Source: a virus
Taxonomy: Duplodnaviria; Caudoviricetes
Length of the DNA stretch: 64,000 bases
Direction: 5' to 3' (one strand)
IMG/VR virus record: IMGVR_UViG_2602041664_000001
Coordinates: 18,872 to 82,871 of that record
Below the pieces are notes generated by a model. It made no database searches and was not told the origin of the DNA. It saw only the letters and a program-made list of their open reading frames with translations. Positions 16,709-64,000 of the stretch are shown here, piece after piece. Both the position numbers and the translations under genes were made by a program. Numbering within the stretch: the stretch's first letter is position 1; each line of letters starts with the position of its first letter.

Positions 16709-16751
16709 GTTTGTAAATGTTGCCCAAAAATGTCAAATACGCTTATAAATA

Positions 16752-16786
16752 AGTCCTTACTTCGTCTTTTTGCCTTCATACATTTG
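16752..16786 (+). promoter_or_regulatory. Phage-type promoter AGTCC-N22-TACATTTG
   Basis: Variant first base, same spacing, upstream of the head operon. Confidence 0.6.
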
Positions 16787-16814
16787 CACTATACAATTTT
16801 ATTAACCAAACTGT

Positions 16815-18356: not shown

Positions 18357-18402
18357 GGTGTTCTTCCCATAAAAAGTATTCATTCAATAAACTTATAAAG
18401 AT

Positions 18403-24445: not shown

Positions 24446-24472
24446 ATGCAAACTATATTCTTGTGTATTTCA

Positions 24473-24578
24473 AAAGTGTACACTTTCGAGATACTAAAGT
24501 GTACACTTACGTGATATGAATGTGTACACTTTGGAGATATGAAAGTGTACACTTTAGCACAGCCAAAGTGTACACTTT
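24473..24578. repeat. Array A2: five AAAGTGTACACTTT palindromes, exact 23-bp period
   Basis: Copies start at 24473, 24496, 24519, 24542, 24565. Confidence 0.95.
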
Positions 24579-30316: not shown

Positions 30317-33300
30317 TGAAGTCACACGTTACTATAAAGGCAAAAAGGAAACCACTTGTTCTGCCTGACGATTTTACGCTTGATATTGATGATCAGAACC
30401 CACTGTTCAACGAAACAGAAATGTTCTCCTACCCTGTCAATATTCCTTTGATAGGTAATCGTTTCCTTGTAGGTAACGTTGATAGCGCAATAAGTGATAT
30501 TCGTCCTGTTCAGTTGGAGCATACCCCTATGCGTATTCTTGTTGATGGTCTTCCCTTTCGTAGTGGTACTGCTGTCCTTGCCGATGATGACGAGGTAGAA
30601 GATGGTGTGTCTATGAATATAGCTTCTTCTTCGCAAAGTTTCGATAGCCTTATCGGGGATTTGTCTTGCCAAGACATACCCGTGAAGGATAAAATTCAGA
30701 TCGGAGAGAAGATTGGTAATCTTGTTAGTGAAGTTACATATTCTTTTAGAGCGAAGATTGAACATAAAGGAAAGAAAGGAGGTAAAGAATATACTTCTGA
30801 TAAAGATGGTGTCGCTAATGGAACTTTTGAACCACAGGCTTTAGGGTTCTCTTATCCTGGTGTGTGCGTTGTCTCTGGTAATAAAGAAAAGGCAGAAAGG
30901 AAGACAACTTTATCTTATCCTGATAAGAACTCTGTTACTGTTCCAAAGGTTAAAACGAGCTTTATAAATGTTTCAGAGGCCTATCCTACAAAGCCTTATT
31001 GTAATGCTCGTGTTTGTTATAAGCATTTAGGACTGAATGATGATGGAACAACAAGTGATAGCGTTATTGCGGCAAAAGACGCTACCAATACTAATGAGGA
31101 TGCTTATCCTTATTGGGTTTTGGATGCTGATCGCCCACAGTCAGGTATCTGTTTCTATGTGCTTTACTTTCTTGATTGTTTGTTTGAATATTTAGGAGTG
31201 TCGTTTGATAAGAGTGCATTAACAGAAATAGGTGATTTCAATCGACTTTGTTTCTTTACCACTCATTGTAAGTACGATACTGTTCCTATTCATGGTGAAG
31301 GCGAGAAAAAATATATTTGGAAAAAGAGTGTTATAAAAGATTCTAAGGAGCGTATTATAGAGTCTACCGACACACTTTGTCTTGGTTCTTTATTGTTAAA
31401 AGCGAATAGTATAGCGAAGATTGATGAGTTCTATTACTTTTCTGATTCTCAATCTGAAATGCCTATTATACCTCTGTCTGAAACTGAATTGAATGGTTGG
31501 AAAACCTCCCCTTCCGAAGCTACAGAGGATAAACCTTATGTCTGGAATGTAGAGATTTTTACATACACAGATGGAACAAAAACGGTGGGTATTCCTCATT
31601 TCCTTTGTACTTATAGGCAAATACCTATAGCGTCTGTTGAACATCAATATGCACCAAGTGATAATACTGTTACACCTCCTGTAAATAAATGGGCTATTAC
31701 GCCTCCGCAACACGAGGATGCCAATCCCTTCTTCGCGAATATCGATGAGATTAATGAGTGGTTGGATAGTCGTGGTTGTGGTGGTCGATTGAAATTTGAG
31801 GATGAAGGCTCTAAGGATGTCACCAGTTTTACGGTTCGTTTTGATGATGGAAGTGAACCCCAAACGTACAATGTCGGTGATGGCTCAATTCAGTCTATTA
31901 CTATTGAGTCGGATGCTAAGACGCATAATGTGTCTGGCAATGTCCTCGCTATGTATGCAAATAGTGAGAATTTTCCAAAGGAGAGTGTTAGTACTGTCAT
32001 TAAGTCTTTAGAGAACAGTTTCGGTATTAAGTTCTATTATGATTATGAGCAGAAGAAGGTAACGGCTTATTTACTTCGTAAAGTCTTTCGTGATCAGGCG
32101 CAACCGATAGACCTTCCTTGTAAGGTTATCTCTATGCGTAAGGTTAATGAGAAAATCACGGGTGTCCGTATGTGTTATTCAGCAGAAAGTGATACAAAGG
32201 AACAACGACAGAATATCAAACAGAATAAGAAAGACTATAATACTGATTACGACTATATTGAGTATCCTCGTTCAAGAACAGTGACTAATAAAGTCTATGG
32301 TCAGATTTTCAAGGCTTTGTCATCTTCTGATATGAACGTTTATGTTGATAAAACAACCGGTAACGCTTATCGTGTAAAGGTAGACAGTGAAGCTAAGGAT
32401 GCTAACTCTTTACATCCTGCTTTATTTGAGGTTGGTGCTTTCAAAGGCGTTGAATTAGGCGATTGCTCTAAGATGAATGAAGACTATGTTCAGGAGTTTA
32501 GTAGTGAGTTTACTCCGATGGTTTTTAATGATGTAAACTATCAGAATGAAATCGCTCTTGCCTCTGGTTCTGCTACGGGTGTTGATGAAAAAGGACGACG
32601 TGGTTCTGTTTCAAACATCAACGCAAAGCGTAGACAGCCTATTTTATCGGCTTTCATAGATGAGGAAATGGAACACGAGTTTGTCTTACAGAAGATTCGT
32701 AATCTATTGTCTACTTCTTGGGCTGATTTCTATCTGACAGAGGAACTTCGTTTGCGTGAGAGTTATGACACTACAAAAACAGAAGATGGCAACTCTCCCT
32801 TGCAATCGCACGACTGGGGACTTTCTATTGCTATTATGCGTGGCGGTGGTATTGATTCGACAATTGAAAAATATTCTTTCGATTATGATGGCTTTGGAAA
32901 TAGTAAGTGGCGAACCGTGGCAGGTCAATATGCTCTAACCTCCGACTCTATTGACATGATGGGTAACGAGTTTGATTATAATGGCGTGCAGCCTGGTGTT
33001 GGTAATGAAGAGAGATTCTCTCTGAAGATTCGAGCTTTCAAACAGCCTGACTGGTCGCCTGTGCCTCTGTGTAATCCTGATGTTATGAACGAGAATGGAA
33101 CAGTTGAGACTAAGATTCGTACACGTGGATTGTTTGATACTTTTATGTCGGAGTTTGCTTATTTCCTTCTTAATCGAAAGAAATATCGCATTCGTTTGTT
33201 AGCTACTCCAGCGGCTATTGCTGATATACCGAACCATTGGCTTCAGCGTTATCGTATTAATGGGGTTACTGGTTATATAAATAAGGTGTCTTACTCCCTT

Positions 33301-33351
33301 TCTGCAAAAGAGGGTATAAAGGATATTGAAATAGAATTTTACGCATTATGA
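30316..33351 (+). CDS. Large tail/baseplate structural protein
   Basis: 1011 aa; N-terminal DQNPLF...FSYPVNIP typical of Bacteroidetes phage tail hub proteins. Confidence 0.7.
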   Translation: MKSHVTIKAKRKPLVLPDDFTLDIDDQNPLFNETEMFSYPVNIPLIGNRFLVGNVDSAISDIRPVQLEHTPMRILVDGLPFRSGTAVLADDDEVEDGVSMNIASSSQSFDSLIGDLSCQDIPVKDKIQIGEKIGNLVSEVTYSFRAKIEHKGKKGGKEYTSDKDGVANGTFEPQALGFSYPGVCVVSGNKEKAERKTTLSYPDKNSVTVPKVKTSFINVSEAYPTKPYCNARVCYKHLGLNDDGTTSDSVIAAKDATNTNEDAYPYWVLDADRPQSGICFYVLYFLDCLFEYLGVSFDKSALTEIGDFNRLCFFTTHCKYDTVPIHGEGEKKYIWKKSVIKDSKERIIESTDTLCLGSLLLKANSIAKIDEFYYFSDSQSEMPIIPLSETELNGWKTSPSEATEDKPYVWNVEIFTYTDGTKTVGIPHFLCTYRQIPIASVEHQYAPSDNTVTPPVNKWAITPPQHEDANPFFANIDEINEWLDSRGCGGRLKFEDEGSKDVTSFTVRFDDGSEPQTYNVGDGSIQSITIESDAKTHNVSGNVLAMYANSENFPKESVSTVIKSLENSFGIKFYYDYEQKKVTAYLLRKVFRDQAQPIDLPCKVISMRKVNEKITGVRMCYSAESDTKEQRQNIKQNKKDYNTDYDYIEYPRSRTVTNKVYGQIFKALSSSDMNVYVDKTTGNAYRVKVDSEAKDANSLHPALFEVGAFKGVELGDCSKMNEDYVQEFSSEFTPMVFNDVNYQNEIALASGSATGVDEKGRRGSVSNINAKRRQPILSAFIDEEMEHEFVLQKIRNLLSTSWADFYLTEELRLRESYDTTKTEDGNSPLQSHDWGLSIAIMRGGGIDSTIEKYSFDYDGFGNSKWRTVAGQYALTSDSIDMMGNEFDYNGVQPGVGNEERFSLKIRAFKQPDWSPVPLCNPDVMNENGTVETKIRTRGLFDTFMSEFAYFLLNRKKYRIRLLATPAAIADIPNHWLQRYRINGVTGYINKVSYSLSAKEGIKDIEIEFYAL

Positions 33352-33605
33352 TTATGAAGAGTGAGGTTGAATATTTTATTTACAGCTACTTGACCCGATT
33401 GTTTGGTCCTAAGTACTTGTTGGATTATAGAACTGATTTGACAAAAGACCTTGGGCTCTCCAGTATGGACCTTTTGCAAATCGTGATGGACGTTGAAACT
33501 CGTTTTAACATCTTTATTGACCCGTCTCGATTCCAACAGGACCGTTCTATGGGGACTATTGTTAGTGTTATTACAAACATAATTAGAGAACAACATGGCT
33601 TCTAA
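33348..33605 (+). CDS. Acyl carrier protein-like
   Basis: DLTKDLGLSSMDLLQIVMDVETRFNIFID vs ACP consensus DLGxDSLDxxElvmxxExxFgixI. Confidence 0.75.
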   Translation: MIMKSEVEYFIYSYLTRLFGPKYLLDYRTDLTKDLGLSSMDLLQIVMDVETRFNIFIDPSRFQQDRSMGTIVSVITNIIREQHGF

Positions 33606-34614
33606 TCTCGTTTTAAAATCTGGCTCACCGCACATTGGTTCGCCTATTACTTATAAGGTAACAGCTGCTTCACTTACGGGTATCATTTCTTTCCATAGGG
33701 TTGTCGTAAAGGTGAAAGCAGCTCTTAGCACTGATACTGATTGGACTATTACGCAGGTTTCTACTCCTGTTAATGAAGGCGAAATCGTTGAGTTAGATAT
33801 TTCTTCTGCTCTTCAGGCTGTTGCTGACCGCTATCAATACGATCCTATCCCACCTACGGCTTATCCGTTCGTAAAATATTCGCTTTCTGCCTATGATGAG
33901 TATATGCAAAATGGTGAGGTTCATCAGACGGAGGAAATAAGTAATGAAGGTGGTAATGCTCTCTTGGGTGCTAAGACCGACTTAGAAAGGCTCTTTAGTG
34001 ATGGGAATAGTACCGCACAACATTTCTCTCGGAAACCTAAGTCTGAGTATGAAATTGTTTCCGTTGGAGAGGCTGTTGTTGTTCCTCAGTCTTTTCCTGC
34101 TCCTGTGTCGTTGGGTAATGTAACGACTGGCCCCTCTTCTGCTGTCTTCCCTGTAACAACAGCTGGTATGCAAACGATAGGCGGACGTGATTTCTACGCT
34201 TTGAATAGTTCTTCGTCTGATCGTTTTGAGTTTCGCTTCGTGAATGGCTTGGGATGTCTTGAGAGCATATCTCTTCTTTCGCTTCGTTCGGTAGAGGTGA
34301 ATATTACAAGTGAGACTTATATTCGTTCTGTTCAGGAAACATTTGGTAACTTTTTCCGTGGCTTAATTACAAAACAGAATGATTATGAAACGTGGAAACT
34401 ATCAAGTGGACCTGTCAGTCCCGCAATGCAAGCGTGGTTTCTTCATGAGTTCCTTATGACTTCGGCAGCTTGGATAAAGGTAGGAACTGTGTTTATCCCT
34501 TGTCATATCGTACCAGAAGAAACTGTGACGGGTGTCAATCGTGCAGATGGTTCTATGCGTGAGGTTCATTTCTCGGTACAGTTTGATGTTAATGGCTCGC
34601 CTGAATTTAGTTGA
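33595..34614 (+). CDS. Tail structural protein
   Basis: 339 aa; FRFVNGLGCLESI motif; tail operon. Confidence 0.65.
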   Translation: MASNLVLKSGSPHIGSPITYKVTAASLTGIISFHRVVVKVKAALSTDTDWTITQVSTPVNEGEIVELDISSALQAVADRYQYDPIPPTAYPFVKYSLSAYDEYMQNGEVHQTEEISNEGGNALLGAKTDLERLFSDGNSTAQHFSRKPKSEYEIVSVGEAVVVPQSFPAPVSLGNVTTGPSSAVFPVTTAGMQTIGGRDFYALNSSSSDRFEFRFVNGLGCLESISLLSLRSVEVNITSETYIRSVQETFGNFFRGLITKQNDYETWKLSSGPVSPAMQAWFLHEFLMTSAAWIKVGTVFIPCHIVPEETVTGVNRADGSMREVHFSVQFDVNGSPEFS

Positions 34615-39807: not shown

Positions 39808-42800
39808 ATGGCGATAGAGAAGTTATACTTAGAACACAAACAGACAGGCGGACGACTGACCGCTGAGGAGTTTAACAAATTGCCTGAAAAGGTCAACGAG
39901 TTAATCGACGCACAGAACTCCGAGGAGGAACGTGTGAAGAAGACGATTGCAAAGAATCGTCCTACGCTTGGGCAACTCTCAAACGTGAATAGCGAGACAG
40001 ACGAACTCACATCCGAGACGTGTGTACTCGTATGGAATGGCGACGAGTGGGGCCCTATGAAGCTGTCTGAACTTAATATTGGGCAAGGTGGCGGAGGACA
40101 ACAGCAATCTATTCTCTATTATCTCCGTGCCATCAATCAGTCGCCTTCTACTACGCTATCGGCCTCTAAGTCAGCAGGTGAGTGTGCTATTCGATTTATG
40201 TTCGTGTCACGCACTAAGGATTTTGGGCAGGCTGATTATGTTGACTCTGGCGAATGGGGAACGTACGAAATATTCGCCAAAGCAGGTGATGGTACTTTCG
40301 TCAGTAAGGCTCGTGGTCGCTGTCAGTCGAACACAGTTACGACTGTTGATGTATTCAAGTTCCTTGAGAGCGGACAAAATAACATCATGGTAAAGATTAC
40401 AGGTGAGGTGACAGGACAAACCTCTCCTGCGTTAGTCTATTCAATCACACTGTCTGCCCTCTTCCTTTCTATTTCTGAGTTTAACTGGTGGAAGGCTTAT
40501 CAAGGCGACATTGTCTTGCCGTGTTACATTAGCGGTAACATCTCTAAGACGCTTCATGTGAAGATAACAGGTGAAGGCTACGAGCAGACGTATGAGCGTC
40601 AGTTCGGTACTGCAACTTACACATCTTCCCCTGTCGCTTACACCGTGCCATTTACGAATAAGACTGGTATCTTCCATCTCTCTGCTTGGCTATCAAATGA
40701 AGACAACACCGTGCAAACTACGCCAGTAGGCTACGACTTTATGGCGGTAGCTAATAACGAGGCTGTGAAGATGGTCGTTGTTAATAATAAGGCAGAGAAA
40801 CTGCTGAACTGGTATGAAAATAAGGTGTTGGAGTACGCTGTATATGACGGCAAGGCTGTTACGACACCGCTGTCAATCCTGATGAAGAAGGATAACGAGG
40901 TCCTTCAAGAGAATGTTTCTGAGAATACTCTGACACAAACAAAGATGCAATACACCCTTTCGCTTGAGGTTGAGACTATAGACAACTCCGACTTTACAGC
41001 GTTAATTGGGTTCAAAACTCACCCAACTGACGAGGTGCGTTTGCGTGACGCTATTCCTTTCCCAGTGGATAACTCGCAAGGTTACTCTGCAACAGCTGGA
41101 GCGGTATTCTATTTGAATGCTAAGAACAGAAACAACACCGACACCGACCGTAATATCCTCCGTAATCTCATCAATACCGAGCATATCGGTGCTGAGTGGC
41201 AGAGCGTTGCCTTCTCACGTGACGGCTGGGTGACGGACGATGAGGGTGCACGCACATTGCGACTGCTCGCTGGTTCTCGATTGACAATAGATTACAAGCC
41301 ATTTGAGAAGGAAGCTGCTCAAAGCGGTAAGACTATCGAGATAGACTATCAGATTAATAACACCTCTGATTACGATGCTGAGTGTATCTCTATTGCAATG
41401 CCTTATCAGAAGGGTTATATCGGATTGAAGGTGAAGCCTTCTTCTATTATGTTCGCAACTCGTAGCGAGCGTAATCCTGATGTGCAGGCAATGAGCACAG
41501 ATGATGGTGTGCGTATTCGCCTGGCACTCGTGATTAGTCCTAAGAAGTACACTTATGTACTGAATGGAAACACGTATTACCTTAACCTCGTCTATCTCTA
41601 TATTGACGGCATTGAAGCTCGTAAGTTCGCCTACTTGCTTACCGATTCTATGCAGATAGGTTCAGGCGGTGGTATCGTTATAGGATCTGATAAGGCTGAT
41701 GTCGATTTGTACTCTATTCGCATTTATGACAGTGCAATGGACGCAGCTAATGTTCATCAAGATTATATCAATGCTCTTGCAACCGTAGGAGAGAAGAGTG
41801 CCGAGAAATTGGATAATGACATCTACGACACGCTCGGTACCACAGTCGACTTTGACAAGGTCCGTGGCAAGGTGAACGTATTTACATTTGATAAGCCACT
41901 CCCAGCGTATGAGTATGGTAAATCATATAGACCTAAAGGCACGCTTGAGATATATCCGAAAGATGGTAATACCAACCTTAACCGCTTGACAATTACCAAC
42001 CTTCAATTACAAGGTCAAGGTACATCTTCTATGCTTTACTATCTTTGGAATTGGAAAGCAAAAGTAGCTAAGGATACTACTATTGTATATGAGGATGGTC
42101 AGACAGCGCAGAAGAAGTTTGAATTATTCAAGAACCTGCCTAAAATCTCTAAGCTGACAGCAAAGAAAAACATCGCTTCTTCTATGCAATATCACAAGTT
42201 AGGTTCTGTGAACTCATATACCGACCTATGGAAGGCGGTAGGATTAACTAACGAGGGTATCGAGCAGGATAGCGAAGCACGAGTGTCTATTTACCAAGAG
42301 ACATTCGTTGGCTTTGAGAAACAGACAGCAGAAGACGGTACTGTTACGTACAAGTTTGTCGGTCTGTTTACACTCGGTCCAGACAAAGGAGATTCTGCAA
42401 CCTTCGGATATGATAAGGACCTTTTCCCCGACCTCTTATCTATTGAAGGCTCTGATAACTCTCCACGCTTGACGCTCTTTCAAGTACCTTGGGACAAAAG
42501 GCGCATCCGCTACAATGCGGAGGAAGAAGCATACCAGTACCAAGTCTCTGAACTCTCTTGGGAGAATTGCTGGGATTTGGACTATGCCGACCTCCCAGCG
42601 GATGATAAGTCAACAGCAGATGATGAGACCCGCCAGCGAGCAGAGCAGCTCGTTGAATCGTATATCACTGCTTATAACATCGTATATCAGTGCAATACTT
42701 TCATTGAGCCTTTCAATGGTACACTTGACGAACTAAATGCTGACCCTCATTCAACACACATTGAGTATTGGATTGCAAAGGCTGGTGATCCAAACCAATA

Positions 42801-43116
42801 CAACCTATATTATTACGACTCGCTTTACAAGAAGTTCTGCCCGTCGACACTCGATAGCGGTGTATCGGTGGTTAATCTTCGACAGCAGTTAGTCGGAGAT
42901 AAGTACGGATTGACTGAGACGATATTTAGCTCAGTTAGTGACGCAGCCCAGCTCAATGAGTTATTCAAGTCTGCACGTATTCAGAAGTTCCGTGCTGAGC
43001 AATCCCAATACTGGGACATCACAGATACCTTATATCATCAACTATATGTTGAAGCGGTGGCAGCGACCGATAACTGCGCAAAGAATACTTATCCTTATTG
43101 TTTTAACGAAGAATAA
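39808..43116 (+). CDS. Large tail fibre/adhesin, N-terminal part (Ig-like, LamG-like, start of CotH-like region)
   Basis: 1102 aa; YLYIDG...IVIGSDKADVDLYSIRIYD (LamG-like), QGTSS, DNCAKNTY. Confidence 0.75.
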   Translation: MAIEKLYLEHKQTGGRLTAEEFNKLPEKVNELIDAQNSEEERVKKTIAKNRPTLGQLSNVNSETDELTSETCVLVWNGDEWGPMKLSELNIGQGGGGQQQSILYYLRAINQSPSTTLSASKSAGECAIRFMFVSRTKDFGQADYVDSGEWGTYEIFAKAGDGTFVSKARGRCQSNTVTTVDVFKFLESGQNNIMVKITGEVTGQTSPALVYSITLSALFLSISEFNWWKAYQGDIVLPCYISGNISKTLHVKITGEGYEQTYERQFGTATYTSSPVAYTVPFTNKTGIFHLSAWLSNEDNTVQTTPVGYDFMAVANNEAVKMVVVNNKAEKLLNWYENKVLEYAVYDGKAVTTPLSILMKKDNEVLQENVSENTLTQTKMQYTLSLEVETIDNSDFTALIGFKTHPTDEVRLRDAIPFPVDNSQGYSATAGAVFYLNAKNRNNTDTDRNILRNLINTEHIGAEWQSVAFSRDGWVTDDEGARTLRLLAGSRLTIDYKPFEKEAAQSGKTIEIDYQINNTSDYDAECISIAMPYQKGYIGLKVKPSSIMFATRSERNPDVQAMSTDDGVRIRLALVISPKKYTYVLNGNTYYLNLVYLYIDGIEARKFAYLLTDSMQIGSGGGIVIGSDKADVDLYSIRIYDSAMDAANVHQDYINALATVGEKSAEKLDNDIYDTLGTTVDFDKVRGKVNVFTFDKPLPAYEYGKSYRPKGTLEIYPKDGNTNLNRLTITNLQLQGQGTSSMLYYLWNWKAKVAKDTTIVYEDGQTAQKKFELFKNLPKISKLTAKKNIASSMQYHKLGSVNSYTDLWKAVGLTNEGIEQDSEARVSIYQETFVGFEKQTAEDGTVTYKFVGLFTLGPDKGDSATFGYDKDLFPDLLSIEGSDNSPRLTLFQVPWDKRRIRYNAEEEAYQYQVSELSWENCWDLDYADLPADDKSTADDETRQRAEQLVESYITAYNIVYQCNTFIEPFNGTLDELNADPHSTHIEYWIAKAGDPNQYNLYYYDSLYKKFCPSTLDSGVSVVNLRQQLVGDKYGLTETIFSSVSDAAQLNELFKSARIQKFRAEQSQYWDITDTLYHQLYVEAVAATDNCAKNTYPYCFNEE

Positions 43117-43118: not shown

Positions 43119-45167
43119 ATGGCAAAAAGCAAATGGAAATTCAGACAAGATGACCTCGATACTATCTTCACGGTCATTAACCAAGGATTGATGAAGAAAC
43201 CCTACTCGGTGGAATATCACGATACATACGATGATGGTACACCTGTTTGGAACGGTGAGAAATCCGTACTATGGAATCTTATGGAGCAGGCATATCCCGA
43301 AGAGCGTGCGCAGATGATGCGCAGAATGCTTGCGAAGATGGAGGAACTCGGAGGGTTGCAGAAAGGATCACACCAGCAGAAGCTCTTTGCATTCTTTGCT
43401 AAGTACTATTTTTCTGTGATTGATAAATTCTCATCTATGCTCTACAATGAAGATGGCAAGCTATATGAGAAGATGAAGCTCGCTATGCTACAGGGAACAT
43501 ACACGAACGATACCGACCCACTCGGTCAGTCGCTCGGTGATGGGCAATCACCCGAGGTTGCGTGGGTAAAGAAGCGCATTCAATACCTTATGTCTAAGTA
43601 TTCCTTCGGAGATTATGATGCCAAGACTGCTGAAGGTGCGATTACTGTTCGTACATCAGCACAGGCGGATGCAACAACTAACTCTATTACCTTACGTTTG
43701 ACACCTGCAATGAAATTGTACCCTACTATTGCGTACGGTACCACAATTATGCGTGGTGCTCGCACAGATGCAGGTAAGCCTTGTGAGATAGTTGTCGATA
43801 TCAACGGCACGTCCGACCAGCAGCTATCAGTTAAATCAGCAGACTACCTGCTCGATATTGGCGATTGGTCATCATACGTCATTAATGGTGCGCTCTCTAT
43901 CATTGGTAAGCGACTCAAGCGATTGAAGCTCGGTGATGAGAAAGAACAGAAGGTGAAGATACTAATATCTTCGCTCACGCTCGGCAATACAACATCCTTA
44001 GAGGAGATAGATATTCAGAACATATCTACCCTCGGAGGTGCGCTCGATATGCGTGGGAACTTCCGCTTGCGTAAGTTCCTCGCTGGTGGTTCCTCGCTCA
44101 CCGAAGCACACTTTGCAGATGGTGCTGCACTCGAGGAGGTCGACTATCCAGCTACGACATCATACGTGGAATTAAAGAACCTCGATAAACTCACGAACGA
44201 GCACTGCGACACAGAAGCGTGCGCTCCTAATGTAATGAGTTACTTTGTTAGCGGGTGTGACAATCTCCAGCCGATTAAAATGCTCATTGGAATAATGGAT
44301 GCACAGGTTGGGCAAGTTCCTCATGCTCTGCGTTACGTGCGCTGTGTCGGTTTCAATGAGACTTTCACGGACGGACGAGCATTCGATAAACTCTCCCAGT
44401 TAGTCGATGGAACATATCAAGGAATCGATGCAGAGGGTCAGTACGGCAACGACCCCTACCCAGTTCTCGACGGCACTATCAATCTCTCCACAGGTGCATA
44501 TCGTGATACCTACGATGCACTTATGACGCACTATCCTAAGCTCAAGCTGAACATCGCTAAGTGGTGGATTCGCTTCGAAGACCCAGAGGTGAAGCGAATC
44601 TGTGTTGAGAATTGGGACAAAGACGGTGATGGCGAGCTCTCTATGGAGGAAGCCGCTTCAGTTAGTTCCATCGGGACTATCTTTAGGGGTAACATAAAGA
44701 TTAAAGACTTCTCCGCATTCACTTTTTTCACAGAAATAAAGGGAAACGAAGGGGGTATTTTTGATGGATGTAAGAATCTTGAAAAAATAGCAATACCTAC
44801 GGGATATACACTACAACATACGATGTTCTCTAATTGTATTCGTCTAAAAGAAGTAATCTTTCCAGTCAACATGAAGTCTTCACCAGTCTTATACGAGACC
44901 TTTTCACACTGTATAGCACTCAAAGTTCTTGATTTCCCTGAGACGTTTACAGGCATCATTAACTCAGGAACCTTCAGAGGTGTTACTGCTATACTTATAT
45001 TCAGGGCGCAGACTGTTGTGAAATTCGAACGATATGCAGGTTGGCCATTTTTTTACAAAGGCAACAACATCTATGTACCTGATAGTTTGGTAGAGAAATA
45101 TAAGATTACTGACGGCTGGAATGATAAATCAGAATGTATTAAGCCTCTCAGTGAGTATCAAGGGTGA
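43119..45167 (+). CDS. Tail fibre/receptor-binding protein with exchangeable C-terminal BspA-like LRR cassette
   Basis: FEDPEVKRICVENWDKDGDGELS..EA..V-SIGT then LRR and IYVPD..PLSEY; crossover site at 44668. Confidence 0.85.
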   Translation: MAKSKWKFRQDDLDTIFTVINQGLMKKPYSVEYHDTYDDGTPVWNGEKSVLWNLMEQAYPEERAQMMRRMLAKMEELGGLQKGSHQQKLFAFFAKYYFSVIDKFSSMLYNEDGKLYEKMKLAMLQGTYTNDTDPLGQSLGDGQSPEVAWVKKRIQYLMSKYSFGDYDAKTAEGAITVRTSAQADATTNSITLRLTPAMKLYPTIAYGTTIMRGARTDAGKPCEIVVDINGTSDQQLSVKSADYLLDIGDWSSYVINGALSIIGKRLKRLKLGDEKEQKVKILISSLTLGNTTSLEEIDIQNISTLGGALDMRGNFRLRKFLAGGSSLTEAHFADGAALEEVDYPATTSYVELKNLDKLTNEHCDTEACAPNVMSYFVSGCDNLQPIKMLIGIMDAQVGQVPHALRYVRCVGFNETFTDGRAFDKLSQLVDGTYQGIDAEGQYGNDPYPVLDGTINLSTGAYRDTYDALMTHYPKLKLNIAKWWIRFEDPEVKRICVENWDKDGDGELSMEEAASVSSIGTIFRGNIKIKDFSAFTFFTEIKGNEGGIFDGCKNLEKIAIPTGYTLQHTMFSNCIRLKEVIFPVNMKSSPVLYETFSHCIALKVLDFPETFTGIINSGTFRGVTAILIFRAQTVVKFERYAGWPFFYKGNNIYVPDSLVEKYKITDGWNDKSECIKPLSEYQG

Positions 45168-45598
45168 TACTCGCTAAGGGGTCGGATTAATTTTGCTAAC
45201 CAGAATCTACTATACTCTTGCTTGTATTGTGTAATGGTTGAATCTGGCACATAGATATACTTTAAATTCTCATTTAGAGCATGAATAGAGGAATTATTAA
45301 TTTTAGGAGGAGTTTCAGGCAAAAGAATAATAGTTGTAAGCTTCTCATTCCTTATTATAGATTCTCCCAATATTTCCCTTACATTAGCTGGTATTGTAAT
45401 CTCTTTTAATCCCGTATTATAAAATGACTGATAAGATAATATAACAAGAGAATTAGGAAGCTCTATCGTTTCTAAATTTGTGCAATTTGAAAAGGAAACG
45501 TACCTTGAAACGACTCCTCCTAACACTTTAAGGCCTGTAAATAATTTGAAACCTCTAAAACTTGTTATCTGTTTGTTATTTGCGAACATAGTCCCGAT
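45158..45598 (-). other. Silent shufflon cassette 2 (IGTMFANNK...PLSEYHP)
   Basis: Open frame from the recombination site to the stop; LRR. Confidence 0.85.
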
Positions 45599-45634
45599 GG
45601 GATTAAGACAGTATTTGAACATCGTTTTAATCCC

Positions 45635-46123
45635 ATCGGGACTATCTTCGCAGGAAACAGAAGGATAAGGAATCTACAGGTCTTATCATTCACCAATATC
45701 AAAAGGATTGGATATGAGAACTTAGAGGGATGTGAATCTTTAGAATCAATCACTATCCCTAAGAGTGTAGATGTTATAGGTTTCTATACATTCGGAGGTT
45801 GGTCTTATAACCCTCTTAAATCTCTTAAAACTGTTTTTGTAGAGGAAGGGACGTTGTCGTATATACCTGAAGGATTTGATAAATACATTAAGGATGTCGT
45901 AGACTACCCTTCTACTATATCTTCTTTTGGATATACTCAACCTTCTTTGCTTGCGAAAATTACCATTTTAAGATCAAAGACCCCACCTACTATTAATTTC
46001 TCCTCACTAAAGGGAAACGGCGTTATATATGTGCCTGACGACGTAATAGAAACTTATAGACATTCCGACAACTGGGCTCGTGTTGCAGATAGAATTTACC
46101 CTTTAAGTGAGTATCACCCGTGA
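45635..46123 (+). other. Silent shufflon cassette 3 (IGTIFAGNRR...PLSEYHP)
   Basis: Open frame from the site, no own start codon. Confidence 0.85.
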
Positions 46124-46530
46124 TACTTACTAAGCGGATAGATATACTCTGCTATATCTGAGAAGGAAGCACTTGCTTTGTATAAATTAACGCTCTCGTC
46201 TGGCACAAAGATTCTTGAGCCCGTTCTATCACTCCATCCATACGAAGCGTTCTTTCCTTGCTTAGGAGGTATTTTGCTTTTGATTACAAAGTTTTTAAAA
46301 CGCAACCCCCATAATAAAGAACTTTGCTGCTCCATGTTCTCAACGATGAGATTATCAATCGTTGAATTATAGAAGCACGCTTGGTACACAGATACAGAAG
46401 GTGGACATATTAGTTTGTAAAGGTGTACTATATAACGTAAGCTCTCTTGATTAACAGAGTTGAGATTCTTAAATATAGATAGGTCTAATATGCCATTTTT
46501 TCTATCTAAGCCTTGGAATACAGTCCCGAT
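46114..46530 (-). other. Silent shufflon cassette 4 (IGTVFQGLD...PLSKYHG)
   Basis: Open frame from the site. Confidence 0.85.
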
Positions 46531-46566
46531 GGGATTAAAACAGCATTTGAACACCATTTTAATCCC

Positions 46567-46959
46567 ATCGGGACTATTTTCTATAATATGAATACAGATA
46601 ATCTCTCAGATCTGAAGCATTTTAAATCAGTCAAACTCCTTCCGTCAGTAGGTGGAGCTCCTCGCTCATACTTCTATAATACAAGAAGAATCGATATACC
46701 TGAGAATGTCACGTCGCTTAGTCGTTATGTATTAGGTTTCAACACATCAACAGTTGTCGTTTTTCATGGAAAGACTCCTCCAAGTCACGACTGGACATTT
46801 TCTAACACGACAGCAACCTACGATACATGCACACCTAATGGGTGCAAGTTCTATGTACCTGACGAGAGCTTGGAAGCATATAAAAAGGCTTTTACAAGTA
46901 AACCTTGCCCATTAAGAGGAACATCTATTATTCGTCCTATGAGCGAGTATCACGAATGA
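46567..46959 (+). other. Silent shufflon cassette 5 (IGTIFYNMN...PMSEYHE)
   Basis: Open frame from the site. Confidence 0.85.
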
Positions 46960-47315
46960 TACTCGCTCATAGGATGGACTCTATCTACATATTTATAATT
47001 CATCCATGTCTTTTTATACGTGTTTAAAGCCTTATCAGGTACGTATATACATAGCTTCGTAGGAATTCGCATAGCCGTATCTTTATTAAACAGCGTGTCA
47101 TCTCCAATAGGTGTATCACCCAGCATGATTACATTCTTCAGATTCTCACAGCCTAAGAACATTCTTCTTCCACATCCTTTAACAGTGGAAGGAATCCACA
47201 CCTCTTCCAAGTTAGACATATTCCTAAATATGTCATTATTCAAGTACTGAATTTTGAAGTATTGCAACTCCTTGAATCTCTTAACATCATTACGGTTGTA
47301 GAACTTAGTTCCGAT
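46950..47315 (-). other. Silent shufflon cassette 6 (IGTKFYNRN...PMSEYHS)
   Basis: Open frame from the site. Confidence 0.85.
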
Positions 47316-47322
47316 GGAACCC

Positions 47323-48327
47323 TTATCTAAACGCTCTCCGTATCTCCTTATTAATCGTTGTGTCTTTCACAGCAGAATACACCTGAGTAGTCTTGATGCT
47401 CTGATGCCCTAATATATGTTGTATAATAGGTAAGCTCACACCCTTACTCAGTAGCACAGTGGCGCACGTATGCCTGGCACAATGAAAAGTAATGTGCCTA
47501 TGTATATTGAATCGCTTAAGCACACGCTTCAGTATCAGGTTACAGCGAGCGTTACAGGGCAACTGAAAGAGTTTACCTGTCGTAGTCTTGTTCTCTTGCA
47601 CCATTGCAGCAGCCTTTCCTCCAAACATCTTAGAGATAGGTATTCGCACCTCATGGTCAGTCTTCTGCATTCGCATCACCACCCACTTGTTCCGATAGAT
47701 GTTCTTAACGTGCTGCTTAGTTACTTGCACGATGTCCGAGAATCGAAGACCTGAATAGACGCTGAATAGAAAACCTTTAACCACCTTTCTCTCCTCTTTT
47801 GTCAAGTCTTCCTTTACCTCTTTCTCCTCAATCCGCCTCAGTTCTCTCTCTGTCAGCGATTGCTTCTGAACATTCTCCGTCTTAATGTGATACTTGCGAA
47901 AAGGATATACCGTCATCAGTTCCTCGTCGATAGCGAGATTGACGAATCGACGAAATATCTTCATAAACTTTGCAATAGTGTTTATCGCATACCCAGCACC
48001 TTTCAAGAAGTTCTCGAAATCGCATATACATTTATAATCAATCTGCGTAAAGGTCAGTTCTTCCTTATATCGCTTTAGCACCGCCAGTGTAGCCTTATGA
48101 TTTGCTATTGTCCCTGCTGTATATGTCTCCTTATCTATCTCACCTTCCATCCAGTCGAGGAAAGAACTATTCTCTTTGTATGTTGTTATTTTTGGATTGT
48201 CTATTAGTTGGTTTATATTACCGATACGTTTTACAAAGTATTGTCCGTCTATTTGTATCTGTATTAATGCGTTGTGTCCACGTAATTTTATTGCAATGTC
48301 CTGAACAATCTCTTTGATGTCTTTCAT
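47323..48327 (-). CDS. Tyrosine recombinase (probable shufflon invertase)
   Basis: SGLRFSD, HCARHT, LGHQSIKTTQVY; stop 5 bp from the last shufflon site. Confidence 0.9.
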   Translation of the reverse strand: MKDIKEIVQDIAIKLRGHNALIQIQIDGQYFVKRIGNINQLIDNPKITTYKENSSFLDWMEGEIDKETYTAGTIANHKATLAVLKRYKEELTFTQIDYKCICDFENFLKGAGYAINTIAKFMKIFRRFVNLAIDEELMTVYPFRKYHIKTENVQKQSLTERELRRIEEKEVKEDLTKEERKVVKGFLFSVYSGLRFSDIVQVTKQHVKNIYRNKWVVMRMQKTDHEVRIPISKMFGGKAAAMVQENKTTTGKLFQLPCNARCNLILKRVLKRFNIHRHITFHCARHTCATVLLSKGVSLPIIQHILGHQSIKTTQVYSAVKDTTINKEIRRAFR

Positions 48328-48839
48328 TATATCTCTTTAGTATGTTCTGCTATCCTGATTTTTGATTTTATAGGGCTAATCATATCTTCTATTCGTTGCT
48401 TATCGCTTCCAAAATAAGCACAGTATTGATGATAGCCAAGGGTTATGTCCTCATTCATATATCCTTGTATAATACAAGTATTTTTCTCTCCTTCAAAAGC
48501 GATTAACCCCTCATATATAGTTTTATGCCATACGTAATGAACTTTTGTGTTGTGTGTTGAAAGTTCGTTGCTTACAAGTTTTTTTTGATTTTCTTGTGTT
48601 ATAAGATGTACTTCTGTTGTCCATTTACGCTGAAGATAGTAATTTATTACTCTTAATAGGGAGATTCTTATGGTTGGAATTGCTAATATTAATTTATGTC
48701 TATCCCCTACCATTGATGAACAAGCTTCCATAAATTTATCTACAGTTATATCTCCATTTGTCTGAAAAACATACCAGCCTTGTTCACGTAACAAGGCTGG
48801 TAGTTTTCGCGATATACAACAAGGTTCTTGAAAAGCCAT
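48327..48839 (-). CDS. Hypothetical protein
   Basis: 170-aa ORF coupled to the recombinase. Confidence 0.75.
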   Translation of the reverse strand: MAFQEPCCISRKLPALLREQGWYVFQTNGDITVDKFMEACSSMVGDRHKLILAIPTIRISLLRVINYYLQRKWTTEVHLITQENQKKLVSNELSTHNTKVHYVWHKTIYEGLIAFEGEKNTCIIQGYMNEDITLGYHQYCAYFGSDKQRIEDMISPIKSKIRIAEHTKEI

Positions 48840-49414
48840 TAGAAATCGTCCTCCTTTTTTTGTTGTTTTATGTATGCTTTTAGGTCAGCTATAAGTTTGC
48901 TGAAATATTCACTTCGCTTCTCATTAAAGCTTTCTATGTTGCTTATTTGTTGAATTGTCAAGTAGTAATCTTCATTTTCATGTGAGAAAATCTTTTCTCT
49001 TTGTTTGATATTTCCACCATTTGATGCCATTATTATATAGCCGTTGTATGAGTATCGTACAGCATCTATTTTTAGTCTAAATCGCTTATCTTTGCAGTCG
49101 ATTGTGATGTCAAATTTTTCTATACCGTCATAGTCAATAGGTCTTCCCATCAGTTTATCACTTGTTACTCGGAAGTTCTTGTTTGCTTTGAGTATAATTT
49201 TCCCGTTTTCTGCGTCTTCAACTTGAACAGCATTTTTGTAGTTACTTATTTTCCCCGCAAAATAACTCCGAAGATAGGCGTATTCTTGTTTTGCGTTTGT
49301 ATCTGTCGTTATAACTTGCGTAAATCCTCCGTTAGTATCAAAACGGATTGTGTCTTGTGCGTAACTTGTTATTCCGATAATGGCGAATAGCAGAGTGATA
49401 ATTAATTTTTTCAT
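48839..49414 (-). CDS. Exported protein, DUF4468-like
   Basis: Signal peptide MKKLIITLLFAIIGITSYA-Q; VQVEDAENGKII...IDCKDKRFRL. Confidence 0.75.
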   Translation of the reverse strand: MKKLIITLLFAIIGITSYAQDTIRFDTNGGFTQVITTDTNAKQEYAYLRSYFAGKISNYKNAVQVEDAENGKIILKANKNFRVTSDKLMGRPIDYDGIEKFDITIDCKDKRFRLKIDAVRYSYNGYIIMASNGGNIKQREKIFSHENEDYYLTIQQISNIESFNEKRSEYFSKLIADLKAYIKQQKKEDDF

Positions 49415-49852: not shown

Positions 49853-50254
49853 ATGGCAAGAAGAAATGAAGATGATAAAGATGTAAAGGAATATCGTGGC
49901 AAGCGTTTCGATATGCGTGCTTTAATGGCTAAATATGATGTATCTATCAGTGATTTGGCTAACGGAACTGGACTTTCTTATGGCTCAGTTCAGTCCCTTA
50001 TTAGACTCAATCGCCCCTCTATGACAAATCTTTACAAGATAGCTCAAGCATTGTCTTGTGATGTTACAGAGTTATTTTTATCTGAAGATGAAATAGAGAA
50101 TCCATCTTTTTCAAATAATATAGATGGGGAAGATACGTTTAAAAAAGATTTTGATGTTAAACCTTTAGACCCTTCTTTAATACCTGGTTTAATGTTATCC
50201 CATGACACGATAACTTGTCCTTATTGTAGCAAACGTTTTTTGTTGTTGGATTGA
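49853..50254 (+). CDS. XRE-family HTH regulator with C-terminal CPxC motif
   Basis: VSISDLANGTGLSY...PSMTNLYKIAQALSCDVTELF...ITCPYCSK. Confidence 0.85.
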   Translation: MARRNEDDKDVKEYRGKRFDMRALMAKYDVSISDLANGTGLSYGSVQSLIRLNRPSMTNLYKIAQALSCDVTELFLSEDEIENPSFSNNIDGEDTFKKDFDVKPLDPSLIPGLMLSHDTITCPYCSKRFLLLD

Positions 50255-51677: not shown

Positions 51678-52277
51678 ATGGAAACTAATTTTAATGAAAT
51701 CGCAAAACTGAAAGAAATTAATGCGCGTGAAGCTGCGTTAAAACAGTATATAGTATATGAAAAAGTATATAGTGACGTTATCCCCGCTTTGTATGTCAGT
51801 ACTTATGCAAAGTATAACGCGGGGTATCTTACAGGTGCCTGGATTAATCTTCAGGCTTGCAAGGATAAAGAAACTTTTTTTAAAGTTTGCCGTGCCTTGC
51901 ACGGAGATGAGGAATACCCTGAATTAATGTTCCAGGACTTCCGAGGCTTTCCAAAAGAATTGTATTCGGAGTGTGGCGGAGTTGATAACCTATACACTTA
52001 TATAGAGGCTTTGGAAAGTTGTGAAAATCCAGAAGCTCTCGCAGCTTTCCTTGAGTATTTCGAATTAGATGATCTTTGTGAATTTGAAGATCGCTTTATA
52101 GGTCCTTTTGATTCTGAAGTAGATTTTGCCTATGATTATGTAGATAATAGGAATTTTAAAAAAGATGCGGGGGAATTAGCATTATATTTTAATTACGAAG
52201 CATACGCCCGCGATTTGTTTATAAATAACTATGTCTTTATAAACGGCTTTGTGTTCTTTAAAGGAAATTTAAAATAG
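51678..52277 (+). CDS. ardA: ArdA antirestriction protein
   Basis: LYVSTYAKYNAGYLTGAWI, PELMFQDF, YFNYEAYARDLF; acidic. Confidence 0.9.
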   Translation: METNFNEIAKLKEINAREAALKQYIVYEKVYSDVIPALYVSTYAKYNAGYLTGAWINLQACKDKETFFKVCRALHGDEEYPELMFQDFRGFPKELYSECGGVDNLYTYIEALESCENPEALAAFLEYFELDDLCEFEDRFIGPFDSEVDFAYDYVDNRNFKKDAGELALYFNYEAYARDLFINNYVFINGFVFFKGNLK

Positions 52278-63940: not shown

Positions 63941-64000
63941 TTGCGTTGTTTTAGAAAACAGTTGCTATGATTTAGAAAATAGTTGCGTTGTTTTAGAAAA
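63935..64000 (+). repeat. 21-bp tandem repeat AAA(T/C)AGTTGC...TTTAGA, at least 3 copies, running off the window end
   Basis: AAATAGTTGCGTTGTTTTAGA / AAACAGTTGCTATGATTTAGA / AAATAGTTGCGTTGTTTTAGA. Confidence 0.8.

Follow-up and report, generated by a model that had tools for sequence, protein, structure and literature searches.

The window analysed here comprises 64,000 nucleotides of an 82,871-bp virus record (IMGVR_UViG_2602041664_000001). Its tail region contains an open reading frame of 984 aa, which matches 'tail protein' PHROGs, and further downstream a gene on the plus strand for a tail-module protein of 1102 aa (39808–43116). The latter protein matches phrog_24896 with 2134 bits. It is followed by a plus-strand gene for a 682-aa protein (43119–45167). 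On the phrog_14959 profile (2494 positions) the 1102-aa protein covers positions 500–1249 and the 682-aa protein positions 1528–1997, and in MT835639 the counterparts of both are fused into one open reading frame of 2013 aa. The two genes correspond to a single giant tail protein which is fused in relatives, the 1102-aa protein forming its front half. Residues 147–688 of the 1102-aa protein share 23 % identity with the DGR-repeat gene of hankyphage p00 (E 4e-7). Residues 1–516 of the 682-aa protein (43119–44667, plus strand) constitute a constant part with 81–100 % amino acid identity across 44 related loci. It was modelled by AlphaFold with a mean pLDDT of 84.6 and ends in DKDGDGELSMEEAASVSS directly before the first of a series of short repeated sites.

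A scan of the window for CCATCGGRACTR revealed six matches of alternating orientation which delimit three segments. Shuffled sequences contained 0.31 matches on average and in 0 of 100 shuffles reached six, and the whole virus record contained the same six matches and none elsewhere. Site 1 (44668–44679, plus; CCATCGGGACTA, left flank TTAGTT) forms the constant/variable junction. It is followed by sites 2 (45589–45600, minus), 3 (45633–45644, plus), 4 (46521–46532, minus; CCATCGGGACTG) and 5 (46565–46576, plus), and the series is closed by site 6 (47306–47317, minus; CCATCGGAACTA, left flank AGGGTT). CCATCGG is intact in each of the six cores. This heptamer and GACTAT.TT are conserved across the sites, and the left arms fall into three classes, the outer sites being flanked by GTT and the inner sites by AATC. 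Neighbouring segments are separated by spacers of 32 bp (45601–45632 and 46533–46564) with GATTAA...TTAATC ends; in spacer 1, these ends provide sites 2 and 3 with their left arms. The two spacers differ at 4 positions (28/32 identical). The first-pass annotation had described alternating 12-bp sites bounding three segments, spacers of this kind and a distinct flank at the two outer sites, and all of these features were recovered as described.

Each segment carries two convergent, start-less cassettes, in which ATC GGG ACT of the site encodes I-G-T in frame with the open cassette. Segment A contains cassette A1 (44670–45167, plus; family F11, 165 aa counted from IGT), which is the tip now expressed, and A2 (45158–45598, minus; F16, 146 aa). 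B1 (45635–46123, plus; F2, 162 aa) and B2 (46114–46530, minus; F6, 138 aa) form segment B, and C1 (46567–46959, plus; F1, 130 aa) and C2 (46950–47315, minus; F19, 121 aa) form segment C. The five silent cassettes are all open, and the range of 121–165 aa agrees with the in-frame C-termini reading IGT that had been annotated. LRR_5 (PF13306) was detected at E ≤ 0.01 in four of the six cassettes; A1 (35.4 bits), A2 (48.4 bits) and C2 (29.0 bits) exceed the Pfam cut-off, whereas B1 stays below it (25.3 versus 27.7 bits). The Pfam search of B2 and C1 gave no match. A structural model of C1 (pLDDT 68.4) came closest to 4fdw (TMq 0.53) and 4fd0 (TMq 0.52), both LRR surface proteins of Bacteroides.

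The convergent cassettes meet at central palindromes. In segment A (45143–45182, GAGTATCA-AGGG-TGATACTC) the stop codons at 45165–45167 (plus) and 45158–45160 (minus) lie within the palindrome arms, and the predicted hairpin has folding energies of -24.1 kcal/mol (z -5.3) on one strand and -19.2 kcal/mol (z -6.9) on the other. The palindrome of segment B (46106–46131) includes overlapping stops at 46121–46123 (plus) and 46114–46116 (minus) and folds with -17.5 and -14.7 kcal/mol. In segment C (46935–46974) two perfectly complementary arms of 18 nt with 4 nt between them fold with -36.4 kcal/mol (z -9.8) and -31.0 kcal/mol (z -7.3). These palindromes probably end or stabilise the transcript.

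Outside the invertible region, a tyrosine recombinase of 334 aa is encoded on the minus strand (47323–48327), which we presume to be the invertase. As annotated before, 5 bp separate its stop codon from site 6. The earlier annotation thus held in all its details as far as the observation is concerned. The reading frame is intact, and the domains PF00589 (E 2e-19) and PF13102 (E 2.8e-19) were detected. The domain search found no arm-binding domain. In an alignment with the XerA-type structure 4a8e all catalytic positions (R, K, HxxR, H and Y) are present; judged by its sequence, the recombinase is catalytically complete. Generic Xer/integrase models matched below their cut-offs and none specific for Rci matched.

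In order to compare the arrangement with that of relatives, 44 related IMG/VR phage loci and Prevotella prophages were collected. In 34 of the 44 loci, every site found contained CCATCGG, and I-G-T was invariant in all 90 complete cassettes, which fall into 25 families. Nine segment types were seen more than once. Four of these occurred in both orientations (F1/F3, three versus two; F2/F5, one versus two; F5/F12; F13/F18) and seven at differing ordinal positions. Every common cassette family was found fused to the constant gene, within the array or beside the recombinase. For F1 we counted six inner, two recombinase-side and one constant-fused placement; the corresponding numbers were three, three and two for F2 and two, four and one for F4. 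Four of the six cassette families of the window are expressed in some relative, among them F2 in L020 and L028, F6 in L029 and L046 and F1 in L035. L007, with 94 % identity to the window across 7 kb, carries the B2 cassette of the window (98.6 % nucleotide identity) fused at the core to its constant part. In one contig from run X4, position 46525 is joined to 47311, i.e. site 4 to site 6, and segment C is omitted.

The spacers were exactly 32 bp long in 21 of 21 cases and occurred in both orientations. In L013 and L023 they are exact reverse complements of each other within one contig, as expected if inversions of several segments carry the spacer along. The left flank of a site tracks its location and positions 8–12 track the cassette. 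For example, L035 and L045 have F4 cassettes that are 99.8 % identical and show AACTA at a recombinase-side and at an inner site. Consequently, the exchange can be placed within CCATCGG. These data show that the segments have been inverted, permuted and re-paired at exactly these sites among relatives. They support the interpretation of the first-pass annotation, whose description of the architecture was correct. The pairing of cassettes also changes: 27 different pairings were found among 41 segments, with partners re-assorting at the central palindrome. This re-assortment requires exchange away from the sites, and the palindrome is the point where cassettes switch partners over evolutionary time.

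Assembly behaviour at site 1 also speaks for switching. In the L019 assembly the constant end (47/47 nt identical) is joined to two different cassettes, of the 37 contigs reaching the constant end, 11 break off no more than 127 nt past the start of site 1, and both metagenome contigs found break beside this site. The breaks and the double junction could, however, reflect co-existing strains instead of switching within a clone.

Taken together, we regard the locus as a shufflon of the multiple-inversion type, by which a Prevotella phage swaps the tips of a tail-module protein, with a probability of roughly 0.85. A single promoter-driven gene (43119–45167) would combine the constant body of 516 residues with one of six alternative LRR_5 domains, the switch from body to domain lying at the invariant heptamer inside Ser-Ile-Gly codons. 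The six domains of 121–165 residues are arranged head-outward in convergent pairs on three segments with inversely oriented ends. We infer that the 334-aa recombinase carries out the inversions by pairing any plus site with any minus site. Strand exchange within CCATCGG would then invert between one and three segments along with their spacers. Inversions using site 1 would fuse a different cassette in frame to the constant part, and those not using it would reorder the reserve cassettes. The up to 48 arrangements given by the first-pass annotation are arithmetically right (3! × 2^3) if all plus/minus pairs recombine. The protein forms the rear of the giant tail-module protein, and a swapped tip may alter the host surface structure that is recognised.

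The array might also be locked, recording past recombination with the switch now off or too rare, so that only the A1 tip is expressed. The assembled contigs of the probable source run (~1100x, listing threshold 5 %) are in line with this, as they contained a single arrangement, no alternative joint and no contig continuing into an alternative cassette. Moreover, decayed versions exist among relatives: of the recombinase, L038 and L054 retain no more than the final 34 residues, an in-frame stop interrupts it in L027 and fragments are all that L047 contains, and L008 and L026 carry a fixed gene with neither sites nor recombinase. However, assembled contigs drop rare variants, so the absence of rare isomers cannot be read from them and, with the 5 % threshold, switching at low frequency remains compatible with these data. 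The intact recombinase with all its catalytic residues, the six perfect cores and the five open silent cassettes also argue against a fossil. We therefore consider a locked array unlikely, and switching presumably still occurs in this genome.

The LRR protein might instead have a role other than adsorption, for example as a phase-variable product of the lysogen. It is listed under one database name as a 'putative leucine rich cell surface protein', among solved structures it comes nearest to 'putative cell surface proteins' of Bacteroides (4fd0, 4fdw, 4fs7), and searches of PHROGs and NCBIfam returned no function for the 682-aa protein and no family of known function. On inspection, however, its N-terminus (MAKSKWKFRQDDLD...) lacks a hydrophobic signal-like stretch. 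The gene lies downstream of the 'tail protein'-matching reading frames and is co-oriented with the structural block, and the protein represents the second half of a giant protein family with members from phage MAGs. In hankyphage, the family member follows a minor tail protein, bears the variable repeat and is the DGR target. A non-virion role is therefore quite improbable. From gene position and this distant homology to the hankyphage DGR target we infer that the protein may carry the 'receptor-binding tip' with 'six specificities' named in the earlier annotation.

It is also conceivable that the recombinase is primarily the phage integrase, the inversions being a side activity or the work of a host invertase. 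The 82.9-kb record encodes no other PF00589 protein, and neither rve nor a serine recombinase (PF00239) was found in it. The recombinase gene sits at the boundary between the tail genes and Cro/C1-type HTH and ArdA genes, a common place for int in temperate phages, and relatives are found integrated as prophages in Prevotella chromosomes. Against this stand its 334 aa without an arm-binding domain and the integrase of L054 beside tRNA-Lys, which is a separate protein of 399 aa with PF17293 (Arm-DNA-bind_5). In 17 loci a full-length copy (84–95 % amino acid identity) adjoins the last site, and the recombinase keeps a distance of 5–7 nt from it in the loci checked (L009, L015, L020, L028 and L034), whereas the DNA beyond varies between relatives. 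The junction of prophage L053 with its host is over 2 kb further away, past methyltransferase and thymidylate synthase genes. L008 and L026 possess no shufflon and no recombinase, and the closest full-length plasmid relatives (38–41 % identity) are short recombinases beside fimbrial operons in the two records examined. Integration as the primary function is thus very unlikely. General homologous recombination at the repeated spacer/site modules and conserved cassette ends, for which the inverted repeat of 66–78 nt common to the inner junctions and the off-site exchange at the palindrome could speak, is the most doubtful source of the rearrangements, since sites 1 and 6 share only ~15 nt with the remaining sites and cassettes are nevertheless exchanged freely with both outer positions, the exchange maps to the invariant heptamer with location-specific left flanks, and a conserved recombinase co-occurs with the array.

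The shufflon reading can be compared with known systems. The R64/IncI1 shufflon consists of the Rci recombinase, sfx sites and PilV, and resembles the window in its several invertible segments, convergent C-terminal exons of one constant gene, terminal tyrosine recombinase and sites with conserved core and right arm but variable left arm. What it diversifies is a plasmid-encoded adhesin at the tip of a conjugative pilus, whereas a phage tail protein is affected here. Gin/G of Mu, Cin/C of P1 and Min of p15B invert tail-fibre C-termini and thereby change host range. These are serine invertases using an enhancer and Fis, in contrast to this genome without a PF00239 match. Hankyphage (Bacteroides phage p00) likewise diversifies the C-terminus of a distantly homologous scaffold located after tail genes. 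There, one domain is mutagenised by a retroelement, whereas whole LRR domains would be swapped by inversion here, and no reverse transcriptase was found in the genome.

The novelty that the first-pass annotation implied for a tyrosine instead of a serine invertase is outdated (Rin, 2018, PMC6109161; BV01-like phage, 2026, PMC13596623): the tyrosine-recombinase shufflon for phage host recognition is already known as a kind. The Rin shufflon is reported from prophages of Bifidobacterium breve and B. longum (Mavrich et al. 2018, PMC6109161) and from those of Eggerthella lenta clade 1 (PMC8778435), and prophage and virion genomes were seen to differ by its inversions. As here, a constant N-terminus, in Rin that of an RBP, is followed by start-less variable C-termini, each preceded by a short site (an 11-bp asymmetric crossover site in Rin), with a tyrosine invertase without arm-binding domain at the far end. 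The Rin site TTCCCTAACCC, the actinobacterial hosts, the five variable genes reported and their unrelated domains (H-type lectin in E. lenta) differ from the six paired cassettes in a Prevotella phage. The BV01-like temperate phages of Phocaeicola vulgatus (Res Sq preprint, Sept 2026, PMC13596623) are described with a six-isoform shufflon of which all configurations were seen in reads. These Bacteroidales phages share three invertible cassettes at the 3' end of a gene (a tail-fibre gene there), short directional motifs with conserved extensions and a recombinase flanking the array. Their motif TGGGAGAACT has 0 matches in the window, their array measures 1.7 kb versus 2.65 kb, their host is P. 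vulgatus versus Prevotella, and their protein is described as carbohydrate-binding versus LRR_5 tips here.

New here are shufflon tips made of BspA-type LRR_5 domains, a scaffold that is the giant tail protein diversified by a retroelement in hankyphage, and the occurrence of cassettes with 99–100 % identity in phages whose backbones are only 86–88 % identical.

The repeat CCATCGGRACTR was found six times in the window with alternating orientation (44668 on the plus strand, 45589–45600 minus, 45633 plus, 46521–46532 minus, 46565 plus and 47306–47317 minus). Shuffled versions of the window contained 0.31 copies on average and none of 100 shuffles reached six. No further copy is present in the whole 82,871-bp virus record. 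This short asymmetric repeat heads all six cassettes of the window, and the codons ATC GGG/A ACT within each site encode Ile-Gly-Thr (IGT) in frame with the open cassette. The expressed 682-aa gene (43119–45167) ends in cassette A1, which comprises 165 aa counted from IGT. Cassettes B1 and C1 comprise 162 and 130 aa from IGT, and the minus-strand cassettes A2, B2 and C2 comprise 146, 138 and 121 aa. The locus is built of one constant N-terminal gene followed by start-less in-frame cassettes in both orientations, five of the six being silent. Two spacers of 32 bp each, identical at 28 of 32 positions and ending in GATTAA...TTAATC, separate the three invertible segments, and the outer sites carry a GTT flank. 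An ORF for a recombinase of 334 aa (47323–48327, minus strand; PF13102 and PF00589) has its stop codon 5 bp from site 6, the last site. The first-pass annotation had described six alternately oriented sites bounding three segments, in-frame cassettes of 121–165 aa, the spacers with their ends and the outer flank, and a tyrosine recombinase 5 bp from the last site; all of this was confirmed. The shufflon observation is real and its interpretation holds.

The convergent cassettes of each of the three segments share a 10-nt overlap at the segment centre. A palindrome, GAGTATCA-N4-TGATACT[C/T], holds the two stop codons in its arms; it exists because nearly all cassettes end with P-[LM]-S-E-Y-[HQ]. 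The palindrome of segment C is longer and comprises 18 perfectly complementary nt. On both strands the central palindromes fold as strong hairpins (−14.7 to −36.4 kcal/mol, z −3.3 to −9.8); they contain no U tract and are absent from the list obtained by the terminator scan. We infer that these hairpins putatively stop or stabilise the transcript, whichever orientation the segment has.

Segment movement was followed among relatives of the phage. With the constant gene part (residues 1–516) as query, IMG/VR yielded 44 loci of 81–100 % amino-acid identity, 34 of which contain the recombination site. The complete cassettes (n = 90) were clustered at 60 % identity or more into 25 families (F numbers), and in this nomenclature the array of the window reads +F11 −F16, +F2 −F6, +F1 −F19. 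Array size ranges from one to four segments: one two-cassette segment in seven loci, two segments in three loci, three segments in the window and in loci L025, L027, L029 and L019, the last of these with the constant end repeated in inverse orientation behind the array, and four segments in L023. An extra lone cassette is found in four loci. Relatives with inverted and permuted segments share 83–98 % nucleotide identity in the constant part. Among nine recurring segment types, four occur in both orientations (F1/F3, three versus two; F2/F5, one versus two; F5/F12; F13/F18) and seven at different ordinal positions. Locus L035 is arranged as [F1/F3][F14][F7/F4] and locus L045 as [F7/F4][F14 inverted][F3/F1], an order which block inversions would give. 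All 21 spacers are exactly 32 bp long and both orientations occur. Inside L013 and inside L023 spacers are found as exact reverse complements of each other, as is expected if inversions between non-adjacent sites take the spacer along.

Common cassette families were observed in all three positions, i.e., fused to the constant part, at inner sites and adjacent to the recombinase gene. Four of the six families of the window are expressed in relatives, namely F11 (L026), F2 (L020, L028), F6 (L029, L046) and F1 (L035); F16 and F19 were never the expressed cassette among the relatives' loci. In L007, a locus with 94 % identity to the window along 7 kb, the constant part is joined exactly at the core of the site to cassette B2 (98.6 % identical). 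At this junction (L007 7053–7090) one extra T follows the core and the frame stops after 9 codons; the cause is a sequencing error, or else the isoform is dead.

Some loci deviate from the regular plan. L021, L035, L045 and L046 contain a lone single-cassette unit of 484 nt (F14, F15; e.g., L035 10404–10888) that runs from one site directly into the next site of the same orientation and has neither a partner nor a central palindrome. The lone F14 cassette ends with ...ESYFESEF and not with PLSEYH. Such direct-orientation sites could permit excision of the unit if the enzyme allows it. In the locus of P. multiformis DSM 16608 (L056, 11550–12080) two inverse sites are only 519 nt apart, and frames of 207 and 221 codons are open through and beyond both sites.

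The point of exchange was deduced from the consensus of 99 sites, which fall into three classes by location. The inner sites read GTTTTAATC, then CCATCGG, then GACTAT.TT. The sites on the constant side read GTTAGTT followed by CCATCGG, and those on the recombinase side A(G/A)GGTT followed by CCATCGG. The left flank always tracks the location; which bases stand at positions 8 and 12 depends on the cassette. For instance, the F4 cassettes of L035 and L045, which are 99.8 % identical, carry AACTA at one recombinase-side and one inner site, and in L007 the G at position 12 travelled with the B2 cassette. Strand exchange is therefore confined to the invariant heptamer CCATCGG.

Evidence for activity was sought in four public sequencing runs (X1 to X4, Logan). 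In their assembled contigs, which drop rare variants, the probable source run X1 showed one arrangement at ~1100x and no alternative joint. Within this stretch the X1 contigs break only at the palindrome 45152–45182. The contigs of X2 to X4 represent small parts of relatives; one X4 contig joins 46525 to 47311 (site 4 to site 6), leaving out segment C. In locus L019 the constant end, identical at 47 of 47 nt, is joined to two different cassettes within one assembly. Furthermore, 11 of the 37 contigs reaching the constant end stop within 127 nt after the start of site 1, the joint between constant and variable part. A metagenome scan for the pattern of constant end plus site returned only two contigs, and both break beside site 1. 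As the repeat shared at site 1 is only ~15–18 nt long, the breaks suggest that the sample contains alternative continuations. Together, the L019 junctions and the breaks at site 1 point, as indirect signs, to mixed populations elsewhere. A mixture of strains would yield the same picture of junctions and breaks.

The enzyme expected to drive inversion at the shufflon aligns with the XerA-type structure 4a8e, and the catalytic residues are found in the motifs GLRFSD (Arg), MQKTD (Lys), HCARHT (His, Arg), LGHQ (His) and TQVYS (Tyr). PF13102 and PF00589 were the only domains detected, and no arm-binding domain is present. Full-length copies of 84–95 % identity adjoin the last site in 17 loci, the copy of L027 being interrupted by a stop codon, and contig ends truncate two more copies. 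In L038 and L054 the recombinase is reduced to a remnant of 34 residues, in L047 to fragments, and L008 and L026, which possess a fixed gene without further sites, have no copy. The closest full-length relatives in plasmid records (38–41 % identity) are short recombinases, located beside fimbrial operons in both records examined.

The recombinase may have an additional role as integrase. It is the sole tyrosine recombinase of the genome and lies at the border between the late genes and a region encoding a Cro/C1-type HTH protein and ArdA. On the other hand, prophage L054 has at its end, next to tRNA-Lys, a distinct integrase of 399 aa that carries PF17293. In the genome of the phage PF00239 (serine recombinase) gave 0 matches, the control being positive in 12 of 14 genomes, and no rve-type transposase was detected.

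The surroundings of the recombinase gene were also inspected. In the second prophage of P. vespertina A2879 (L054, 12465–14317) a one-segment array is followed by the last 34 residues of the recombinase, the integrase mentioned (Arm-DNA-bind_5 and SAM_5), the tRNA-Lys gene and then ORFs that are host-like by translation. This locus looks like a locked shufflon at the prophage end. The DNA past the recombinase differs among relatives. In the window, two genes on the minus strand (48327–49414) overlap the recombinase gene end to start; the 191-aa gene encodes a DUF4468 protein with an N-terminus resembling a signal peptide, and the 170-aa product belongs to no known family. Both were rejected as partners of the shufflon after tblastn against a set of relatives' loci found the 170-aa protein only in L023 and L035 and the 191-aa protein only in L035. 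The genes for the Cro/C1-type HTH protein (49853–50254) and the ArdA antirestriction protein (51678–52277), just past the shufflon, mark the start of an early or regulatory region.

The exchanged domain was assigned by profile and structure searches. The cassettes had been described as BspA-like leucine-rich repeats (LRR). Three of the six window cassettes (35.4, 48.4 and 29.0 bits) exceed the curated cut-off of 27.7 bits for PF13306 (LRR_5); a fourth scores below it (25.3 bits) and the remaining two gave no match. Among the cassettes of all loci, 59 of 90 match LRR_5 at E ≤ 0.001, and all 90 align with the common IGT, YVPD and PLSEYH motifs. Cassettes of other families share 21–36 % identity with C1 of the window. 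An only moderately confident model (pLDDT 68.4) of C1, which has no Pfam match, is nearest to 4fdw and 4fd0, both LRR proteins (TMq 0.53 and 0.52). The constant part ends in DKDGDGELSxEEA just before the site, and a swap therefore exchanges essentially the whole LRR domain.

The constant part is also present in two prophages of P. vespertina A2879 (on contigs of 345 and 395 kb), one of which (L053) has an intact recombinase, in P. bivia DSM 20514, in P. multiformis DSM 16608 and in an isolate of the Prevotellaceae. These genomes identify Prevotella as the host and show that relatives are integrated prophages. The phage record is rated complete in IMG/VR. An inverted terminal repeat (genome 1–58 and 82814–82871, the latter being window 63943–64000; 58 bp at 98 % identity) was rejected as a special genome end and put down to the assembler; its perfect match is exactly 55 bp long, which suggests a k-mer artefact rather than a biological end. 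Another inverted repeat of 107 nt, 85 % identical, occurs in the structural region at window positions 871–977 and 24472–24578 (genome 19742–19848 and 43343–43449), the two copies being 23.5 kb apart. The genome part outside the window (examined as positions 1–19000) encodes a D12-class adenine methyltransferase and a homologue of DNA polymerase III beta (sliding clamp) (11750–12667 and 17046–18191) as well as a 1783-aa protein with a weak PhageMin_Tail match below the cut-off.

PHROGs and Pfam searches on 20 ORFs of the structural region returned almost nothing, i.e., a head maturation protease and ‘tail protein’ PHROGs for a 984-aa ORF upstream, and an NCBIfam search of the tail proteins gave no match. 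The tail assignment therefore rests on context. A megablast search of the locus against a phage collection, from which the phage's own record may be missing, was likewise without match. The 682-aa protein belongs to a large family of at least 381 proteins at E ≤ 1e-5, with lengths of 658–686 aa among the best 120. In a representative library 722 clusters matched at E ≤ 1e-30; most of these are proteins of ~2000–2500 aa which match around residues 1050–1650. The 682-aa gene and its 1102-aa upstream neighbour match consecutive parts of one 2494-position PHROG, and their counterparts are fused in MT835639 to one ORF of 2013 aa. Residues 147–688 of the 1102-aa protein share 23 % identity (E 4e-7) with hankyphage p00 at 32626–34221, inside a 6.7-kb gene that follows ‘minor tail protein’ and carries the variable repeat of a diversity-generating retroelement (DGR) at its 3' end.

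AlphaFold predicted the 682-aa protein (33-row alignment, pLDDT 84.6, pTM 0.70) to be helical in its N-terminal part, to have beta-rich and LRR-like domains in the middle and to end in a C-terminal LRR. Compared with the PDB, the full-length model matched LRR proteins only, at low TM-scores, the nearest being the Bacteroides LRR surface proteins 4fd0, 4fdw and 4fs7; no solved tail fibre was matched in the structure search. In BFVD the nearest models were giant phage proteins of the LRR and the ‘spore coat protein H kinase fold’ (CotH-like) kinds. It is a reasoned inference that the 682-aa protein is the host-recognition part of the tail. The distant relative with the fused tail genes (MT835639.1, 8300–9492; 35–41 % amino-acid identity) contains a 69-nt inverted repeat, 96 % complementary, that brackets 1055 nt; these encode the LRR C-terminus and, in inverse orientation, a single alternative to it of 158 aa. 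A recombinase gene is missing next to this repeat, and the next ORFs are host-like judging by their translations. On the same scaffold this would make a simpler switch with two states.

Cassettes also change partners, and they move between lineages. Among 41 segments 27 different pairings were counted, F2 being paired with six different families, and the homology of L007 to B2 ends inside the central palindrome. Of 162 cassette pairs of the same family and length, 11 are at least 99 % identical, and all 11 stem from phages (four locus pairs) whose upstream 5 kb are only 86–88 % identical. This flow may use either the sites or homologous recombination. We tentatively propose, at somewhat less than even odds, that besides flipping within a genome the sites also dock LRR tips of a common, integron-like pool, which would move between Prevotella phages. 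Exchange may take place, e.g., between two prophages in one cell, as they are found in P. vespertina A2879.

Among known systems, R64 sfx sites have a conserved core and right arm and a variable left arm, a pattern which we also met in the 99 sites of this phage group. The R64 shufflon (Rci/sfx/PilV) acts on a conjugative plasmid's pilus adhesin, PilV; here the target is a phage tail-module protein. The Gin, Cin and Min switches use a serine invertase, for which, as stated, the genome has no gene. A DGR needs a reverse transcriptase and a template/variable repeat pair; PF00078 (reverse transcriptase) gave 0 matches in the genome. Tyrosine-invertase shufflons on phage receptor-binding proteins are described for bifidobacterial prophages (Rin, with 11-bp rix sites; PMC6109161) and Eggerthella prophages (PMC8778435), a September 2026 preprint describes a three-cassette, six-isoform tail-fibre shufflon of BV01-like Phocaeicola phages, confirmed in reads (PMC13596623), and a systematic inversion survey lists tail fibres among its targets (PMC9881135). 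With the Rin type, as a functional class, the window shares the constant gene with start-less cassettes, the repeat at the cassette head and the adjacent tyrosine recombinase without arm-binding domain. The 10-bp cassette-border motif of the BV01-like shufflon, TGGGAGAACT, has 0 matches in the window. A literature search, supplementary files aside, yielded no account of this Prevotella phage group or of a shufflon with LRR_5 tips. The tyrosine-invertase phage shufflon is already known as a kind; this one is set apart by probable BspA-type LRR tips on a hankyphage-type scaffold and, apparently, by a shared, mobile cassette pool.

Prevotella is a dominant genus in human and animal microbiomes, and to our knowledge few of its phages have been studied. 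Six ready-made recognition tips, together with at least 25 tip families in the whole group, would explain how these phages keep pace with variable host surfaces. BspA-type LRR domains are known mainly as bacterial surface adhesins; here they would also serve as swappable phage tips. With a single recombinase, a crossover core of 7 bp and defined tips, the locus is a compact testable system which could be used to map an LRR tip to the surface structure it recognises. The scaffold that is mutated by a retroelement in hankyphage appears to be varied here by inversion instead. If the tip pool is indeed shared, phage lineages would exchange their host-range determinants as finished modules, and for the variation of its tip the same giant tail protein would have taken up a retroelement in one case, that of hankyphage, and a shufflon in the other.
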